From Tetramitus jugosus (taxonomy: Eukaryota; Protista; Heterolobosea), in contig OW569351.1 of the NCBI GenBank assembly GCA_937625935.1, positions 372,001 to 436,000 of the forward strand: a DNA stretch of 64,000 bases, given 5' to 3'. The notes below the pieces were generated by a model that did not search any database, was not told the DNA's origin, and saw only the letters and a program-made list of their open reading frames with translations. Shown here piece after piece: positions 32,446 through 59,668 of the stretch. The position numbers and the translations under genes were made by a program. Positions within the stretch are counted from its first letter, which is position 1; each line of letters starts with the position of its first letter.

Positions 32446-35400
32446 TTACTCTGCAGTTATAAAAACTTCCTTTGCAGGCGGTCTGTTGTTATAGAAGGAA
32501 GACATTGAATGACCATATGAACCAGCACAGCAAATCACAACAACGTGACCATTGTAGCACTTATGCATCCATCTATCCTCACCGAATACATCTCCAGTTT
32601 CACAGATTGGACCCACAACTGTGTACTTTTGTTTTTCTACTGAGTCGTTGTTGTCGTGAGCGGTAGGGAATTCTGTTTCAGTATCATTCTGCTCGATCAT
32701 ACCAGACAAATTCACAATTTCGTGATAAGCATCGTACAGAGTTGGTCTGATCAAAGAGTTCATTCCAGTTTCGAGACCAACATATGACATGTCTTCAGAC
32801 TTCTTCTTTGTTTGAGTAACTCTAGCCAATAGAATACCAGAGTCAGCAGAGAGGAAACGACCTGGTTCAATCCAAAACTTCAATCCACGTTGCTGGATAA
32901 AGTCTGCATACTTGCGAGTGCCGTGCATTAGAGAATGCAAGTGATGATACACTTGAGAAATGTCCAGAGGTTGATCTTCTGGTCTGTATGGGACACCTAA
33001 TCCACCACCAAGGTCAAGTGTTCTGACATTTTGGAACAAACTACTCTGGCTGTTCATCAATAGATCCAAAAAGAACTGAGCTGTTTCTTTCCAGGCTTTT
33101 GTTTCCTTTAGAATACCTGAACCTACATGAGAATGTAGACCAACAACAGTTGTTCTATGTTGTTCACAGTACATGGCCAATTTGTCAAGATCGGCAAGTG
33201 GAATTCCAAACTTACTGCTCACACCAGCTGTTTTCACTTTGCTATGATGTCCTTTGCCCATTCCAGTATCAATGCGCAGGAAAATTTCCTTGTCAGTGAA
33301 CAACTCTGGCCATGCCTCAATGGCAAATACATTGTCGAGTGTCATGTTCACTCCGAGCTCAATACCACGAGCGTAGTCCTCTCTTGGAGCAAAGTTTGGC
33401 GTAAACAAGATTCTCTTGCGATCAATGGTTGGGAATAGAGACAGTACTAGATCCATTTCTTGTGTGCTGACACATTCAAATCCGAATTTCATGCTCTCGA
33501 TCAACTTCAAAATTTCTGGATGAGGATTCGCTTTCAATGCGAAGAAAATGTAGTTGACAACAGAGGATTTGTTGTCACGGATCAATGTTTCAACCAACTG
33601 AGTAGCTCGTTTTTTGATGGTTTCACCACTGTAGACGTACAGTGGTTGATTTTCATTGGCAATTAACTCCAATAACTGCGAAGATTGTTGTCTCCACCAG
33701 ACATCCTTTCCTGATACAACGTTGGATGTGACTGTGGATGGTCTTTGGGCAGCAGCTTGAGCATTGTAATCAGCCAACAATGTTCTCCATTCTTGTCCTA
33801 TTGCACTATTCAATCCAGCTTCCTTATCTCCCTTGAAGATCCATTCATGCACATCTGCAATAAGCACCTCTATTCCTTCAATATGTGGAACAATAAATGA
33901 TAGATTGACATTGGAATGAGCTTGTGAGATCATATGGATTGGATGAGTTGTGTGAGATGATGTCGTGTGGAACATTTGGAATACTGGACTCAATGTATGA
34001 ATCAGTCCACGAATGTTCGTTCCCACTAAACTGAGAGATGCACACGGACCAATGGTTGAAACTCTGCAGTTCATTGATTGCAGATCACGCACTAGCATGT
34101 TGATTCTATCCATACGATCGAATGATTCATCTGATTTGTCTTCTGATGCAGCATCGAGTGAACAGGTAACGTTGGCTTCTGAGGTGGTCACATAGTCCAC
34201 AGACAGATTATACCTCTTGAACAGTGCAAAGACATCACTCAAGAAACCAACTTGTTGCCACATAGCGAATGTATCGATTGAGATCATAATGATACCAGTT
34301 CTCAAACACACGCTCTTGATTTGAGGTTCTGCTTCCTCTGTAGAATCAGATGCAGTAATGTATGTTCCCTCTGTTTTCCCAATGGCGAAATGAATTGACT
34401 TGATTCTCACAGAGATATTGTCTTCTTGGAAGAGCTTCAACAGAGAGGGTGAGATGAAACGGGATTCTGATGCCGCAGCAATTTCCAGCGCTTCAACAAA
34501 GCTGAGTTCATTGATCACACGTGCACTGTCAATCGGCTGAGAGACACCAGGCAATTGACACGTGGACAAACCATAGCCCGACACATAAAATGATACTTCG
34601 CTGCACTCTAGCAATTTGGCAACACAAGCAACCGTACACTCTGCACCAAACTTTGGATCAAACGAAAACAGTCTATGGTTTCCCATGAGATCTCTCACAG
34701 AGTTGCCCTGAAGCACCACAATTCTACTTTGAACATTTTGTTCAATTCGATTCAACAACTCCATTCGTTTCGCTTCAGAGTAATCAAGATTGGAAGGAAC
34801 AGTGTTCAACGCACACGCAGCAGCAGCAGTAGCATCTTGTGCCTCGACCATTGTTGTCAAATAGAGACTAGAGTCCACAAACTCTGCTTCCATGTGCAAC
34901 ACACGATTCAAATACAAGCAAAAGATGCGTGAGACAATTTCGGAGCAAACAGACAAAATTTCTGCTCGAATACTGGAGGTGACCGATCCAACCAGACTAA
35001 TACCCAACAACAATCGCATCACTCTCTGAAACAATTGTTCCAATTCCAAATTTTCACTCAACAACGTGTCCAAAGTCACAACATTTTGTTGTTGAGGAGG
35101 CACAGAAGAGAACAATTGATCGACCCAATGTGCAAAATTCTCTCTCCACACATTGAATCCATCCACAAAATGATCATCACCACTTCCAGAGTAATCATCA
35201 AATGATTCTTCACCAGTGCAAGTAGAAGATGGTTGTTGATGTTGATTCCAAGTCAATGAAACATTGAATCGATCAGTCATTGAAACAATTGCATTTTTTG
35301 TGGAAAGAGTGTTCGTGTTCATCGTATTGTGATTGGCAGGTTGAGAGCAACAACTCTCTTGGATGAGGTCATTCAAATGTGTGAGGTCATCTTCACCTGA

Positions 35401-35547
35401 TGGACAAATGAGAATAATTTTACCACCACCAACACCACCAGAGCTATGATTGTGATTGTCATAGTGATGACGCAGAATTTCAATGATTCTTTGATGAGAG
35501 GCATGTATGCTCTGTGGTTGGAAATGAATCAGTTGGTGATGAGTCAT
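32446..35547 (-). CDS. Aspartate kinase(-like)-ACT-diaminopimelate decarboxylase fusion (LysC-LysA type)
   Basis: Intact DAPDC motifs FALKANP, FECVS, HSHVGSG, DLGGG, EPGRF, GPICETGD; ACT region MWQQVGFLSDVF..SVDYVTTSEANVT; degenerate kinase N-terminus; no introns. Confidence 0.92.
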   Translation of the reverse strand: MTHHQLIHFQPQSIHASHQRIIEILRHHYDNHNHSSGGVGGGKIILICPSGEDDLTHLNDLIQESCCSQPANHNTMNTNTLSTKNAIVSMTDRFNVSLTWNQHQQPSSTCTGEESFDDYSGSGDDHFVDGFNVWRENFAHWVDQLFSSVPPQQQNVVTLDTLLSENLELEQLFQRVMRLLLGISLVGSVTSSIRAEILSVCSEIVSRIFCLYLNRVLHMEAEFVDSSLYLTTMVEAQDATAAAACALNTVPSNLDYSEAKRMELLNRIEQNVQSRIVVLQGNSVRDLMGNHRLFSFDPKFGAECTVACVAKLLECSEVSFYVSGYGLSTCQLPGVSQPIDSARVINELSFVEALEIAAASESRFISPSLLKLFQEDNISVRIKSIHFAIGKTEGTYITASDSTEEAEPQIKSVCLRTGIIMISIDTFAMWQQVGFLSDVFALFKRYNLSVDYVTTSEANVTCSLDAASEDKSDESFDRMDRINMLVRDLQSMNCRVSTIGPCASLSLVGTNIRGLIHTLSPVFQMFHTTSSHTTHPIHMISQAHSNVNLSFIVPHIEGIEVLIADVHEWIFKGDKEAGLNSAIGQEWRTLLADYNAQAAAQRPSTVTSNVVSGKDVWWRQQSSQLLELIANENQPLYVYSGETIKKRATQLVETLIRDNKSSVVNYIFFALKANPHPEILKLIESMKFGFECVSTQEMDLVLSLFPTIDRKRILFTPNFAPREDYARGIELGVNMTLDNVFAIEAWPELFTDKEIFLRIDTGMGKGHHSKVKTAGVSSKFGIPLADLDKLAMYCEQHRTTVVGLHSHVGSGILKETKAWKETAQFFLDLLMNSQSSLFQNVRTLDLGGGLGVPYRPEDQPLDISQVYHHLHSLMHGTRKYADFIQQRGLKFWIEPGRFLSADSGILLARVTQTKKKSEDMSYVGLETGMNSLIRPTLYDAYHEIVNLSGMIEQNDTETEFPTAHDNNDSVEKQKYTVVGPICETGDVFGEDRWMHKCYNGHVVVICCAGSYGHSMSSFYNNRPPAKEVFITAE

Positions 35548-36000
35548 ATTCGTATTATTAAAAGTTTTTTGTTTGTGTACTGTTTGTTTGTGTGTGTTGA
35601 TGACGTTTCGAGCTCAAAAACAAAAAGCTTTCGGCAGCTGCTGTGTGAAACTGAAAAGCGCGTGAAATTTTATCTCATGCGAATATCTCCGATCCTTCCA
35701 ACCAACAACCAACACTACAAAAGTGGCAAGTAGAGAGGTGATCCTTCCAATCGAGTGGATAACAAGTGTTGGGTTCGTGCATTTGTTTTTGGTTCTACTG
35801 GAGTGACAACTCCCATTGCATTCCATGATTCTATCGTTCTTCCCAGACTGGTTCAACTCACAACTGGAAGCTCGCTTGCCATGTCACATCAGAATTTGCT
35901 CCCGACACTCCCAAAAAAAATTGACTCTCCGCACAACAAGAACAACACAACAACATTCTCACACGGAGAGGCGATCTACAACATTTGGCGCGCCAACACA

Positions 36001-39179: not shown

Positions 39180-39622
39180 ATGTCCGCCGTCTCAAAATCT
39201 CAAGTTCTTTCACTGTACAGACAAATCCTCAGGGTATGATTTTTCAAGTAGTAGATCCATCTGTCACTTGTGATGATCAATTTGAAGCAAAATTTTTGTT
39301 GACCAACTTTTCAACTTTCAAAACAACAATTACAAATAACAATAACAATGGGACACAACAACAGGGAGGATCGCAATTTGTCGACTATAACTTTAGAAGC
39401 TATACACATCGAATTGCAAAGGAAGATTTTCGCAAGTTTGCCTCAGAAAGTGATCCACAAATGATCGAAGCACTGTACAACAGAGGATTAGAACAGTTGG
39501 GTGTTGTCCAGAGACAAGCAATCAATAATCGCATGTATTCTAAGAAGTTGAGCATTATTGATCCAAAGTCTCGCTCATTCTTACAACAGGAAGACGCTCA
39601 TTTATCCAGGTTTGCTCAGTAG
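39180..39622 (+). CDS. ISD11: LYR-motif protein ISD11/LYRM4 (Fe-S cluster assembly)
   Basis: Exon 1 MSAVSKSQVLSLYRQILR; intron 39234-39364; exon 2 GGSQFVDYNFRSY..FR..QAINNRMY. The ORF track misses the real start. Confidence 0.9.
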
Positions 39623-39729
39623 TAAAAGAAACAATTTTCTCGCAAGTTCTTCAGGCCCACAAGCTTTTTGCAATCGGAAAAATACTGCAACAGCGAAAAA
39701 AAAAAGTGAAAAAAAAACGTGATTTCATC

Positions 39730-41292
39730 ATGCAACGTCACCTATCGAAAACAGCGTTCATTGCTGGTCGTACTACCAGTCGTGTTGCATTCCAGCAACA
39801 CCTCTTCAACAAATCAACGACTCACATTGTTCGTCACACATTTCACTCATCCTCATCACCATCAAAGCTACAGTACAATGATAATGATGATGATAATGAG
39901 AACAACAATAACATGAATCACAATCACAATAATAACAATATTACTCAAAAGAGTGTGGAAGCTCTCAGTTATCAAAAGTTTTTGGCACAGGAACAAAAAA
40001 AATATGAAAATCACTTGCAATTCCTGTTGCCTCACCACGTTCTTCCCCATCGCAACAACAAACATCAACATTCCAACAACAACAACAACAACAGTAACAA
40101 TAATAATAATAATAGTGACAAAAACTATAGTAATGCATCGTCGTATGGAGAGAATGTCAATCGTTTGGTGATGCGTTTCGATGGTTGTCACTTTTCTGCG
40201 TTTACAAGGCCGTTTCACAAGCCGTTTGATCCGTTTATTCATCGAGCACTCGTGTCCGTCGCAGAAGACTTGCTCAAGAATTATCCATTGACAACAGTGT
40301 ACGTGTGCAGTGATGAGATTACTGCAGTGTTTGACGGATTTGTGCATCAATCGAATCGAATTGTTGCTTCTCGCAATGATCACACATCTCCGACAGTGGT
40401 CAATGATGTGGATGATCGGTCCTTTATGGGTGGTCGTGTACAGAAAATGGTGAGCACTTGTGCGAGTTTTGTGTCTGTACGGTTCAAGCATCACTTGTCT
40501 CAATTGTTGGCCAATGCTGGAGATTCTGCCTATGACAGAGAGAATCATCCAGTGTACCATGTGAAATCAATGGATCAAATCAAGGATTTTTGGCATGAGA
40601 AGCCTTATTATGATCCATCGTCTCACATTGTCAAGAGTGGTGGTGGTGCGACAAATGGAGCAGTTACAATGCTCAAGAGTCACACTATCAAGAAGGCTGG
40701 TGGTCATTCAATGACAACAGGCAATAAGAATAACAACAATAGAAATAATAGTGGTGGTAACAATGGTGGTGGGAATTTTGTCAAAGCAAGAATGACTCAA
40801 ACAACGAGCCAAATCAGGCAACACATTGATGATCACTTGGGCATATTTGATGCAAGAGTTGTTTTGTTGCCTACGGATTTTCTCGTTCTCAAGAATATTA
40901 TTTGGCGATCGAGACATGATTGTATGAGAAACAGCAAGACACTCTTATCTCGGTGCTATTACACTCCCAAAGCAATGCATGGGGTCAGTGCGGATCATCT
41001 CGTTGAGAGACTTTACAAGGAACACAAAGTACTATGGGATGATATGCCCAACGCATTCAAGTACGGTACATTTGTGAAGAAGGAGACATATCAACACACG
41101 GGAGTGAATCCATTGTCCGGTGAGATTTCAACTACTGAGAGACATAGACCAAGAGCCAGGAGTTTCTTGTTGCATGATTGCCACAGTGAAGAGCATGTGA
41201 ACACTGTGATGTCATCAGGCTTTTTGTTTGCAAAGAAGTGGGAGGATGTGCATGGGGACTTTTGGAAATTCTGTGTCCAGGCTCATGAATAG
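39730..41292 (+). CDS. Thg1-like protein (3'-5' RNA polymerase, TLP), likely mitochondrial
   Basis: RFDGCHFSAFT, KPFD, SDEIT, GRVQK, FDARV, WRSRHDCMRNS, KYGTFVKK; R/S/T-rich N-terminus lacking acidic residues. Confidence 0.9.
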   Translation: MQRHLSKTAFIAGRTTSRVAFQQHLFNKSTTHIVRHTFHSSSSPSKLQYNDNDDDNENNNNMNHNHNNNNITQKSVEALSYQKFLAQEQKKYENHLQFLLPHHVLPHRNNKHQHSNNNNNNSNNNNNNSDKNYSNASSYGENVNRLVMRFDGCHFSAFTRPFHKPFDPFIHRALVSVAEDLLKNYPLTTVYVCSDEITAVFDGFVHQSNRIVASRNDHTSPTVVNDVDDRSFMGGRVQKMVSTCASFVSVRFKHHLSQLLANAGDSAYDRENHPVYHVKSMDQIKDFWHEKPYYDPSSHIVKSGGGATNGAVTMLKSHTIKKAGGHSMTTGNKNNNNRNNSGGNNGGGNFVKARMTQTTSQIRQHIDDHLGIFDARVVLLPTDFLVLKNIIWRSRHDCMRNSKTLLSRCYYTPKAMHGVSADHLVERLYKEHKVLWDDMPNAFKYGTFVKKETYQHTGVNPLSGEISTTERHRPRARSFLLHDCHSEEHVNTVMSSGFLFAKKWEDVHGDFWKFCVQAHE

Positions 41293-44962: not shown

Positions 44963-46007
44963 TTATGTGGTTCTACGCATAGTGGTTTGCTTTGGATCTG
45001 ATTGAGGTGTATAAATCATGGATACAGATATTGTTCTGGGTGATGCTGATGACATATCTATGGATGAATTAAACGTTGGAGAGGGTGTTTCTGTAGTCTT
45101 CGTTATCGTCTTGATGCCCGATGCTGCTGAGATGTTCTGTCTCGGTGTTGGAACTGGAGACAATGATATCATTTCTTTGTGCTCCGTTGAAATGTTACCA
45201 TTTTTGCTGCCGTTTGATCGACAATGTCTCATTGGTTTATCAGAATTGGATGGACCAGGTGTAAAATTTGGTGATTGTTGTGGAGCTTCTGGTTTCAATT
45301 TCATTGCTATCTGATTGTCACCTCTTCTGAACTGAGATATTGATGTACTATCTGATATATTGATCATTCTATCGTTCATGTTCTTATTATTGTGATTCCT
45401 TTGAATATGCGATGTGTGTGGTACCTGCGTGGGAAACTTCAACGAGGGCACTGTTTGTTTTTGTTCAGCTATTCCTACTTGTACAGCTGGAGAGCTGCGG
45501 ACACCTGATTTAGAAGGGATGAGTTGTGATAATGGTGGAGATTTCGGAGATGACTCATACTGGTGCGGTTCTTCTGTCTCGACATTGTTACTCTTCGCCC
45601 TGATATCTGTTCTATTGGGCGTCTGGTAGGTGCTGCGAACAGATGTATTCCTATGCTTCAAATTATCCTGATTCGGCGAATAATAATTAAGGTATTCCTC
45701 AATGGTAGAGTTGTGATTATCACTCGTCGTACTTTTGTTAACATTGTTCAGTTTTTCCTTCAAATCCACAATCTCCAGCTCTAGTTCTTGTCTTCGGCTG
45801 ATCTCGGATTCTAGTCGATCTTGAAGTGTGAGCATATTCCTATTGAGTTGTTTTAGATATTCTCTGTTCTTCTCTTCGATTTTCTGTGCGGCATGAGTAA
45901 GTTTCAAAGTTCGATTTGATGCAGAGATCAATAATGAGTACCTGTTGTTGGATCAAGAGAGTCACAGCTTGCTCTAATTTTTCTATCCTCGACGTGTTCG
46001 TTTCCAT
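44963..46007 (-). CDS. Hypothetical protein: short coiled coil plus S/T/P-rich disordered tail
   Basis: Exon 1 METNTSRIEKLEQAVTLLIQQQ joined in frame by intron 45884-45941 (GTACTC..ACAG) to KIEEK. Confidence 0.7.
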
Positions 46008-46088
46008 ACTTTGTTTATTACGTTAATTCAACACAGCTCACGACTTAGGGTCGTGCATGAAAAGTTTTTCTCTTTCTTGCTTGTAAGG

Positions 46089-46111
46089 CAAAAGGACATC
46101 GCCCACCGAGG
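46089..46111. repeat. Displaced copy of tRNA-Lys 3' end plus trailer (23-bp direct repeat, distal copy)
   Basis: CAAAAGGACATCGCCCACCGAGG is identical to 46690-46712. Confidence 0.95.
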
Positions 46112-46689
46112 TTTATTTAGCCGCCAAATAAAGCGTTAATTGTTTTAAACAGTTTCTATCTTTTTTTTTTTTTTTTTAGAGAAAAAAAAATCTCTAGTAC
46201 AACTCCTTCACAGAATTGTAAACTTTCATAATTATTGAATGGTTTTTGTGGTAATTGTATATCCTCTATCCTCCTATATTTTGGAGACAATCCGACAAGC
46301 AACAATCTCGTTGTATACTCATTGTATACTGTCTACCTCAACATCATGGAGTTAAGGAAGTCAACTACCTGAGCCCTCGTTTTAAAAATGACCCAACCAG
46401 TTAATGTTGTTTCCCTGAGGTATCACCCTTCAACCTTATTTCAATCAATTCAAACTATTTAAATCCATCAACAGCCACGATTCCTTGGTAAATACAATAG
46501 GGGTAGAAGGTGGATGAAACAGCTGCCAATGAATGAGGGCAACAGTGAGATCAATCACCTCATGCTCGACCACGTCGCTAGATGTTCTCTTTCTTTTGAT
46601 TTTTGATTGTATTTTATGGTGTGTTTATTGTAAATACATTGTAAAACTTGTTGTAAATAAAAAGTCCGTCAAAAAGGCTCAGGCGGAGA
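46112..46689. mobile_element. Putative tRNA-3'-end-integrated element remnant (578 bp)
   Basis: Bounded by the perfect 23-bp repeat; AT-rich; T17 tract, hairpins, broken reading frames on the minus strand; no integrase or RT visible. Confidence 0.65.
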
Positions 46690-46700
46690 CAAAAGGACAT

Positions 46701-46773
46701 CGCCCACCGAGGGGCTCGAACCCTCGACCACAAGGTTAAGAGCCTTGCGCTCTACCGACTGAGCTAGACGGGC
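46701..46773 (-). tRNA. tRNA-Lys(CTT)
   Basis: GCCCGTCTAGCTCAGTCGGTAGAGCGCAAGGCTCTTAACCTTGTGGTCGAGGGTTCGAGCCCCTCGGTGGGCG folds to a cloverleaf; followed by a TTTT terminator. Confidence 0.97.
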
Positions 46774-46802: not shown

Positions 46803-47178
46803 CCAGATTATTCAAAAAGTAAAAAACTAGGAAAAAACGGAATAACATGGTGATTCAACAAAGGAACACGGCAACAGCCGTTATGCAGTGTGGACCACAA
46901 AGGCTCTAGGCCAAGTGACAGAGAGGTCGTCATTACCGGCAACAAGGTAAAGGCCATGGTCACTCGATACGTCGAGAGACCACATGATCCTCTCAAGGCT
47001 GTCAACAAGAGGTTGACGAAGATGTACGAGGAGCTGCTGACGGTGGTTGACGCACTGCGTCGACAGGTCACAGAACTCACCAAGGAATTGGCAAAGACAA
47101 AGGGTCAACAAACCAGTTCCGATACCGGAACTAGAAGTTGCATAAAGAACTGGTGTTAAAAACCAGATTATTCAAAAA
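46803..47178 (+). mobile_element. Putative tRNA-upstream insertion (344 bp) with 16-bp target-site duplication
   Basis: CCAGATTATTCAAAAA at 46803-46818 and 47163-47178; interior GC-richer than flanks with an 89-codon coiled-coil-like frame (46890-47159); ends in A5. Confidence 0.65.
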
Positions 47179-59571: not shown

Positions 59572-59668
59572 CTCCCATACCGGGACTCGAACCCGGGTCT
59601 TCCGGGAACTTTTGCATTTCAGCTTGGAAGTGAAAGCCGGATATCCTAACCAGCTAGACTATATGGGA
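59572..59668 (-). tRNA. tRNA-Glu(TTC) with 24-nt intron (59607-59630)
   Basis: TCCCATA/TATGGGA acceptor stem; TCCGG-CTTTCA[intron]C-CCGGA anticodon arm; GTTCGAGTC T-loop; T6 terminator. Confidence 0.93.

Follow-up and report, generated by a model that had tools for sequence, protein, structure and literature searches.

Bacterial elements that integrate into tRNA genes leave a characteristic geometry, with an intact tRNA at one end of the element and a displaced 3' fragment of the gene at the other. Among eukaryotes, several non-LTR retrotransposons are aimed at tRNA genes themselves. NeSL-1_TV of Trichomonas vaginalis inserts in the T-loop of tRNA-Pro with the deletion of a few bases (PMC4640811, S6 Fig), and LIN15_SM and LIN25_SM target planarian tRNA-Arg and tRNA-Glu genes, LIN15_SM splitting the tRNA gene into two partial copies (PMC4640811). 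Utopia elements have precise 3' and varied 5' boundaries, 20-bp duplications of the target site (TSDs), and tandem insertions (PMC4640811, section 6), and R2 has short, internally deleted, nonautonomous copies known as SIDEs (PMC3414825). TRE3 and Skipper-2 insert downstream of tRNA genes and outside them, TRE3 at a distance of about 100 bp (PMC5006619). The initial annotation of the locus described here held that known eukaryotic tRNA-targeting elements (Ty3 and Dictyostelium TRE3 and TRE5) land near the gene and do not duplicate its 3' end. This premise is incomplete, as NeSL-1_TV, LIN15_SM, LIN25_SM (PMC4640811), and Dada (PMC3706591, PMC8869645) insert inside the tRNA or duplicate it.

The DNA analyzed is a stretch of 64,000 nucleotides from Tetramitus jugosus (contig OW569351.1), referred to below as the window. 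It consists of gene-dense, intron-poor eukaryotic DNA. Its CTP synthase has its best named match in Acrasis kona (63%). A quick 56-row tree joins it to the Acrasis clade (SH-aLRT, 98), a placement that is probable, Acrasis being the only named heterolobosean in the set. A long ORF at 32446-35613 combines an ACT domain with a diaminopimelate/ornithine decarboxylase domain, which we presume may be a bacterial-type aspartokinase-decarboxylase fusion. In addition, a 576-codon frame at 39562-41292 contains a Thg1 (tRNA-His guanylyltransferase) domain and Asn-rich stretches. The locus of interest is built around a tRNA-Lys(CTT) gene and a first insert, insert 1, with the following main features.

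46089-46111, minus strand: displaced, downstream repeat copy comprising tRNA-Lys positions 62 to 73 and 11 nt of its trailer; from the repeat search and contigs of runs X2 and X5
46112-46689, likely minus strand: insert 1, an internally deleted 578-bp member of a small multi-copy family at the tRNA-Lys T-arm
46690-46712, minus strand: repeat copy that is part of the intact tRNA and of its trailer, T4 terminator included; from the repeat search
46701-46773, minus strand: intact tRNA-Lys(CTT), a high-copy gene whose trailer is largely common among copies; from ARAGORN, Rfam, and depth

The two repeat copies (46089-46111 and 46690-46712) form an exact direct repeat of 23 bp, or of 26 bp with one mismatch. 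Microsatellites aside, no other exact direct repeat in the window is as long, and the longest exact repeats in 30 windows simulated with a third-order Markov model measured 15 to 20 bp. Counted on the alignment, the repeat contains positions 62 to 73 of tRNA-Lys(CTT), i.e., its last 12 nt, and 11 nt of trailer including the T4 run. The tRNA is whole at 46701-46773 on the minus strand (ARAGORN; Rfam, 66.7 bits), the element enters the T-arm between positions 61 and 62, and the direct repeats restore the gene at one side of insert 1. The perfect repeat, its composition, and the intact tRNA at one end had all been reported in the initial annotation and were confirmed. The annotation also described the 578 bp between the repeats as AT-rich and nongenic. 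The length is correct and the copy in the window is nongenic, with no Pfam match for any of the three short frames compared, but its AT richness is mild only (GC content of 34.8%, versus about 36 to 48% per kb in the window).

At position 46697, in the trailer of tRNA-Lys(CTT), contig depth reaches 673 to 1,657 versus 11 to 42 in the flanks, which suggests tens of gene copies with a common trailer. The element is present in just a minority of these copies. The other tRNA in the window, at 59572-59668, contains an intron and is a tRNA-Glu(TTC) by eye; its trailer opens with ATGT, as does that of tRNA-Lys, and its 3' end is not duplicated.

To follow insert 1 beyond the window, contigs from 7 of 22 listed public sequencing runs were examined; the window itself may derive from two of these, X1 and X2. 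Insert 1 contigs are present in six of these seven runs, from four studies; run X8 (oligo-dT RNA) yielded no contigs on insert 1, which is no proof of silence. The depth inside insert 1 equals 146 to 200 in X2 (flank, 17 to 42), 50 to 59 in X4 (flank, 11), and 56 to 70 in X5 (flank, 13), and the summed contig depth, which does not equal true copy number, corresponds to roughly four to nine family members. For this reason, the several sequence variants found among the insert 1 contigs weigh more as evidence of multiple copies. In X2 and X5, the displaced repeat copy joins the element end and, outward, other flanks. Two X2 contigs with unlike flanks both end at 46088, and an X5 contig (record 16) matches 46089-46224, followed by about 790 letters of other sequence. 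Six of the contigs listed (records 7, 8, 14, 15, 21, and 22), which fall into at least four types, connect the right end of the insert to the tRNA-Lys trailer.

The initial annotation had named a single-copy insert, with no other tRNA affected, as the sign of a local duplication or repair scar; the insert is multi-copy, and other tRNA-Lys genes are occupied. Its proposal of a remnant or nonautonomous member of a family inserting into tRNA 3' ends is borne out as to a multi-copy family at one site, tRNA-Lys(CTT) being the only target seen. A local duplication, repair scar, or assembly artifact is very improbable in our view and is largely refuted by the multi-locus junctions. Such an origin could account for the middle being absent from X2, for the lack of an empty allele, and for the fact that no contig of the runs examined spans the whole insert 1 stretch. 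However, the multi-copy insert also adjoins the tRNA-Lys end in other flanking contexts, and X2 contigs (46001-46116 and 46619-46697) match both junctions without a difference, albeit with fewer than 31 letters on the short side. We conclude that insert 1 is real and mobile in origin.

Most family members carry different sequence beyond 46410 and ahead of 46529-46580, where contigs have loose ends. The segment at 46432-46509 has a depth of 0 in X2 and is single-copy in X4 and X5; hence, the window copy derives from a longer element by internal deletion. The two halves of insert 1 have similar depths and are linked in X4 and X5 contigs. Outside the insert, the locus is polymorphic at 46034-46088, where an X4 contig departs at 46034 into at least 255 other letters, and 46042-46067 of the window flank is uncovered in both X4 and X5. 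The left flank (46035-46088) was also considered as a remnant of another copy, a candidate that was dropped because 34 of 500 shuffles were equally good.

The two ends of insert 1 differ in their precision. The fixed end, at 46112, follows the 3' piece of tRNA-Lys in several flanks (X2, X5, and head-to-tail joints), thereby forming a precise junction in a multicopy RNA gene. The tRNA-side end varies, lying at 46574, 46615, 46660, 46661, 46663, or 46689 with different extra letters, and loose ends of right-end variants were found at 46663 and 46686. A variable tRNA-side end at a constant target position is the signature of target-primed reverse transcription. Moreover, Utopia and R2 are marked by one fixed and one varied junction together with tandem copies and a roughly 20-bp duplication (PMC4640811, section 6), from which we infer this mode of insertion. 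The length of the duplication shows an apparent spread of 23 to 27 bp, which may reflect chance matches within the common trailer.

With somewhat better than even confidence, insert 1 is a shortened family member at a fixed tRNA-Lys(CTT) site, likely a nonautonomous copy of a sequence-specific non-LTR element with R2/NeSL-like behavior. In such a model, the template strand would first be cut opposite tRNA position 61/62 by an endonuclease of the element, and reverse transcription primed at this nick would account for the sharp end at 46112. The variable end would stem from a second nick, some 23 bp farther along and immediately beyond the T4 terminator, and fill-in would duplicate the 23 bp, leaving the gene and its terminator whole on the upstream side. 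Short copies may be mobilized in trans, as in the case of the R2 SIDEs. Since the tRNA-Lys gene would stay intact and still be a target, repeated insertion would build tandem arrays.

Head-to-tail joints were observed. Five distinct joints, called at 80 to 85% likeness so that false joints are possible, and four of them with just 32 to 35 letters on the short side, occur in X1, X2, X4, X5, and X9 (five of the six runs that hold the insert). They leave the element at 46574, 46615 (twice), 46660, and 46661 and re-enter it at 46085-46113, passing through the repeat, with the exception of the X1 joint, which lacks any repeat. The best joint (46574 to 46109, in X4 and X5) has 116 to 125 letters on its short side and single-copy depth, and it truncates the element by 115 bp, right at the border of a decayed repeat. 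Taken alone, the contigs are compatible with a circle as well as a tandem.

Read as circles, these joints could be the attP form of a virus-like or island-like DNA element. The 23-bp repeats would then be attL and attR sites made by a tyrosine recombinase, the attP site carrying the tRNA-Lys 3' end and trailer so that integration restores the gene, and the window copy would be an internal deletion derivative. We regard this explanation as possible but doubtful. It accommodates the loss of the interior while both ends were kept at similar depth, and outward short frames at both ends would suit a DNA element with two coding strands. A 23-bp core is made possible by the trailer common to tRNA-Lys genes; because most tRNA-Lys copies have that trailer, its duplication cannot separate a TSD from an att core. 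Eukaryotic tyrosine recombinases are also described as targeting 28S and 5S rDNA (PMC10871703; PMC11162782). However, the tRNA-side end differs among copies at a constant target position, in contrast to the invariant ends expected at an att core. Decay may explain part of this difference: the genome sheds DNA readily, as illustrated by five deletions in the second insert discussed below, and the variable ends could therefore be later decay. The X1 joint without any repeat also argues against an att origin, and the best joint, single-copy in two runs and with a decayed repeat, suits a genomic tandem. The empty joint (46111-46713), which the initial annotation had suggested searching for, does not appear in any of the seven runs examined.

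An 18-mer of insert 1 and the 23-bp repeat have no matches in IMG/VR, a 22-mer of insert 1 has none in JGI metagenomes and GTDB, and BLASTn of insert 1 against phages and plasmids returned no match. Cryptophyte Polinton-like viruses (PLVs) are reported to have no tRNA near their insertion sites (PMC12220804). In its complete form, the att explanation pictures a virus- or island-like DNA element with genes on both strands, prophage-style integration by a tyrosine recombinase that restores a nuclear tRNA, and joints that represent excised circles, sharing its target gene with an independently evolved TRE5-like retroelement. This combination also seems unlikely. The prophage-style attL/attR signature that headed the initial annotation is not supported as the leading explanation: the tRNA-side end varies while the target is constant, and the IMG/VR, phage, plasmid, protein, and Pfam searches turned up neither a tyrosine recombinase nor a capsid or viral match. 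Of its options, the one we prefer is the second, a non-LTR element that is site specific and has a long TSD. Target-primed reverse transcription by a sequence-specific non-LTR element, which we cautiously favor, therefore fits the data better than an attL/attR pair left by a tyrosine integrase, which we hold to be improbable.

Searches for longer copies carrying a tyrosine recombinase, reverse transcriptase-endonuclease, or capsid, as proposed in the initial annotation, found none in the collections searched. Likewise, searches of JGI metagenomes, GTDB, and IMG/VR and the protein and Pfam searches revealed no reverse transcriptase, endonuclease, or full-length copy. The interior of insert 1 contains the following features.

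46112-46132, no strand assigned: fixed element end, with a 7-bp palindrome with a 7-nt loop and a TTTGGCG-type motif; from sequence reading
46161-46177, minus strand: A17 tract at a distance of 49 bp inward from the fixed end, on the tRNA-sense strand, with a short stem-loop before the tract
46336-46422, minus strand: 29-codon open frame with its stop at 46333-46335; possible tail of a deleted ORF
46411-46528, no strand assigned: low-copy middle, with other sequence here in most family members; deletion or replacement site; from contig depth
46463-46606, plus strand: 47-codon open frame, with a T-rich tail and AATAAA behind it; may be the end of an opposite-strand ORF, or chance
46660-46689, no strand assigned: variable tRNA-side element end, with several variants among copies; from joints, loose ends, and pieces

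The region of the fixed end folds no better than shuffled sequences (z scores of -1.2 and -0.9). The TTTGGCG(C/G) motif occurs in the window at 82, 35984, 36112, 41458, 43934, 50141, 53803, and 60977 on the plus strand and at 35 and 46128 on the minus strand; nine of these occurrences lie outside 46112-46132, several of them close to gene starts, and we take the motif to resemble an E2F-type promoter site. Against Rfam, the sole match of the insert 1 region at family threshold is the tRNA, with no ribozyme family. A reading of 46665-46689 as a piece of tRNA-Lys was dropped because 52 of 500 shuffles were equally good.

Two of these features support the retrotransposon reading, namely, the A17 tract near the fixed end on the tRNA strand and the lack of a terminal inverted repeat; the same locus also holds another poly(A) retroelement aimed at tRNA genes. 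We infer both the enzyme and the orientation of insert 1, which is likely that of the tRNA (minus strand). The A17 tract lies on this strand near the fixed end, yet short open frames occur on both strands, and base composition does not decide the strand. The minus-strand frame (46336-46422) has no Pfam or phage match, and the plus-strand frame (46463-46603) has no candidate among longer proteins and no Atlas or Pfam match. Apart from the failure to find a reverse transcriptase, endonuclease, or full-length copy, two observations count against a retrotransposon. First, both ends are about equally deep (in X2, 146 to 200 on the left and 158 on the right), whereas plain 5' truncation would favor one end. 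Second, the short open frames point outward at both ends, the right one with a T-rich tail and AATAAA; if both were real genes, the element would not be a one-strand retrotransposon.

An A-rich tail candidate at each end of the insert, on different strands, would also fit a composite of two opposite retroelement tails at the tRNA-Lys 3' end. Alternatively, a DNA transposon making a long staggered cut there, with a casposase-like or unknown DDE enzyme, could have produced the repeat, a view for which archaeal casposons with a 15-bp TSD beside the T-loop of a tRNA-Pro gene provide a parallel (PMC5137440). We consider a transposon or composite origin quite unlikely. Insert 1 has no terminal inverted repeats (262 of 500 shuffles score equally well, and no inverted pair lies at the ends), and the TSDs of Dada measure 6 to 7 bp and lie elsewhere in the tRNA (PMC8869645, PMC3706591). 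The similar depth of the halves and their linkage in X4 and X5 speak against a composite, as does the comparison of the insert ends with the 3' ends of the ORF1-only elements described below. In three comparisons, 201 to 307 of 500 shuffles were equally good, and a fourth (24 of 500) rests on T runs, so that common 3' ends were dropped as not significant.

The other retroelement at this locus, insert 2, was missing from the initial annotation and is bounded by a 16-bp direct repeat just upstream of tRNA-Lys.

46803-46818, plus strand: left copy of the 16-bp direct repeat, the likely TSD of insert 2
46819-47162, plus strand: insert 2, a deleted 344-bp version of an element that is poly(A) tailed, has one ORF1-like gene, and occurs at very high copy number
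47163-47178, plus strand: right copy of the 16-bp direct repeat, behind a short A run

Repeats of 16 bp or longer within 1 kb occurred anywhere in the window in 1 of 30 simulations. Insert 2 starts 46 bp upstream of tRNA-Lys, head to head with it. Its depth equals 1,451 to 1,883 in X4 (flank, 12), 253 to 344 in X7 (flank, 7), and 262 to 287 in X9 (flank, 4.6). A contig of X7 passes over insert 2, with 30 letters on the short side and the intervening letters unread. The frame of insert 2 matches a 382-amino-acid (aa) protein (P0122), whose cluster has 14 members, carried by contigs of 1.4 to 3.1 kb, and which has 24 relatives. Against one of these loci, L001, the alignment of the window copy falls into six blocks; it shows 11 mismatches over 322 bp and five deletions, which range from 4 to 378 bp. 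The element consists of a short leader, one ORF, a 3' untranslated region (UTR), and a poly(A) tail; it spans 97-1385 in L001 and 1-807 in L002, where A16 follows the 3' UTR.

The 382-aa protein is predicted to contain two RRM-like domains and a long helix or coiled coil (pLDDT mostly 75 to 92, residues 11 to 150), and the best PDB matches of its predicted fold are tandem RRMs (E value, 8e-5). A build of this kind is known from non-LTR ORF1 proteins. Its sequence has no useful PDB match, no viral fold was found at an E value of 0.001, Atlas leads stayed below 0.9, and IMG/VR contains no relatives; a weak coiled-coil match in GTDB (L004, 30% identity) was dropped as chance. No ORF2 (APE endonuclease and reverse transcriptase) is present in L001 to L003, the copies seen carrying one ORF. 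Inserts 1 and 2 have no significant sequence in common.

At its beginning, L001 carries the 5' portion of another tRNA, which is on the minus strand and truncated by the end of the contig (19.6 bits; E value, 0.025). Here, too, the conserved start of the element lies 46 bp upstream of the partial tRNA, head to head with it. The link of the element to tRNA genes thus comprises two loci, one with a truncated tRNA, while L002 and L003 lack the 5' flank. By position and orientation, insert 2 has a TRE5-like placement in a heterolobosean. In addition, L001 carries a second, related one-ORF element at 1391-2790 (423 aa, 46% identical), in tandem after the first and with an A-rich tail. The 3' UTR of this second element folds far better than shuffles (z score of -5.2), and the 3' UTRs of both L001 elements end in a similar bulged stem. 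Positions 1 to 430 of L003 hold a decayed 5' part of an ORF1-only element, just upstream of a 704-codon host gene.

Known eukaryotic elements land near tRNA genes or break them, whereas the insert 1 family inserts inside the gene and leaves both gene and terminator intact; the target is therefore reusable without cost. A reverse transcriptase-endonuclease as the enzyme would mean a target specificity that is new and whose footprint does no harm, which is of interest for tools that insert at safe sites. A tyrosine recombinase would make the family an example of the prophage strategy in a eukaryotic nucleus. Insert 2 suggests that the niche familiar from Dictyostelium, 47 bp upstream of tRNA genes, has been occupied a second time, in a heterolobosean, and it makes the selection of tRNA-targeting elements by compact genomes testable in a second supergroup.

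Several known systems share parts of this pattern. Prophages and islands in bacterial and archaeal tRNA genes differ from insert 1, which has a eukaryotic host, a variable end, no integrase seen, and no phage, plasmid, IMG/VR, or GTDB match. The casposons of Aciduliprofundum boonei resemble it in their staggered-cut duplication at a tRNA 3' end near the T-loop but differ in their 15-bp TSD, terminal inverted repeats, Cas1 enzyme, and prokaryotic host (PMC5137440). Dada also targets tRNA genes, including tRNA-Lys and protist tRNAs; in contrast to insert 1, it makes a TSD of 6 to 7 bp at positions 8 to 13 or in the anticodon arm and breaks the gene (PMC8869645, PMC3706591). Neither TSD length (6 to 7 and about 15 bp) agrees with the 23-bp duplication. 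The placement of TRE3 in Dictyostelium is different as well, as the insert 1 junction lies inside the T-arm (PMC5006619). In the openly available literature searched, no eukaryotic element is described that duplicates both a tRNA 3' end and the terminator, and PMC11702301, PMC13565253, and bioRxiv 2025.10.09.676808 contributed nothing on a tRNA-Lys 3' target site.

For insert 2, the closest parallels are TRE5-A and TRE5-A.2, which insert some 47 bp upstream of a tRNA gene such that their 5' end faces the tRNA 5' end, produce a TSD, and carry extra bases at the 5' junction (PMC5391098, PMC5006619). The build of insert 2 recalls TRE5-A.2, a nonautonomous form with ORF1 only (PMC5391098). TRE5-A differs in its amoebozoan host, the host of insert 2 being a heterolobosean, and no ORF2 was found for insert 2.

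The family membership of insert 1 hinges on its enzyme, and its behavior is like that of a sequence-specific tRNA-targeting element. NeSL-1_TV, LIN15_SM, and LIN25_SM are NeSL-related non-LTR elements that, like insert 1, are sequence specific in multicopy tRNA genes, and the 3' junction of NeSL-1_TV in the T-loop is a few bases from the insert 1 site (PMC4640811). The duplication implied for LIN15_SM, counted from one 5' junction, is about 40 bp, compared to 23 bp here, and the junctions shown for NeSL-1_TV and LIN15_SM contain no complete tRNA, whereas the insert 1 duplication extends past the terminator and leaves the gene whole (PMC4640811). The targets of Utopia and R2 are U2 snRNA and 28S rRNA genes instead of tRNA-Lys, but like insert 1, they combine one precise and one varied boundary with tandem insertions and, in some families, a TSD of about 20 bp (PMC4640811).
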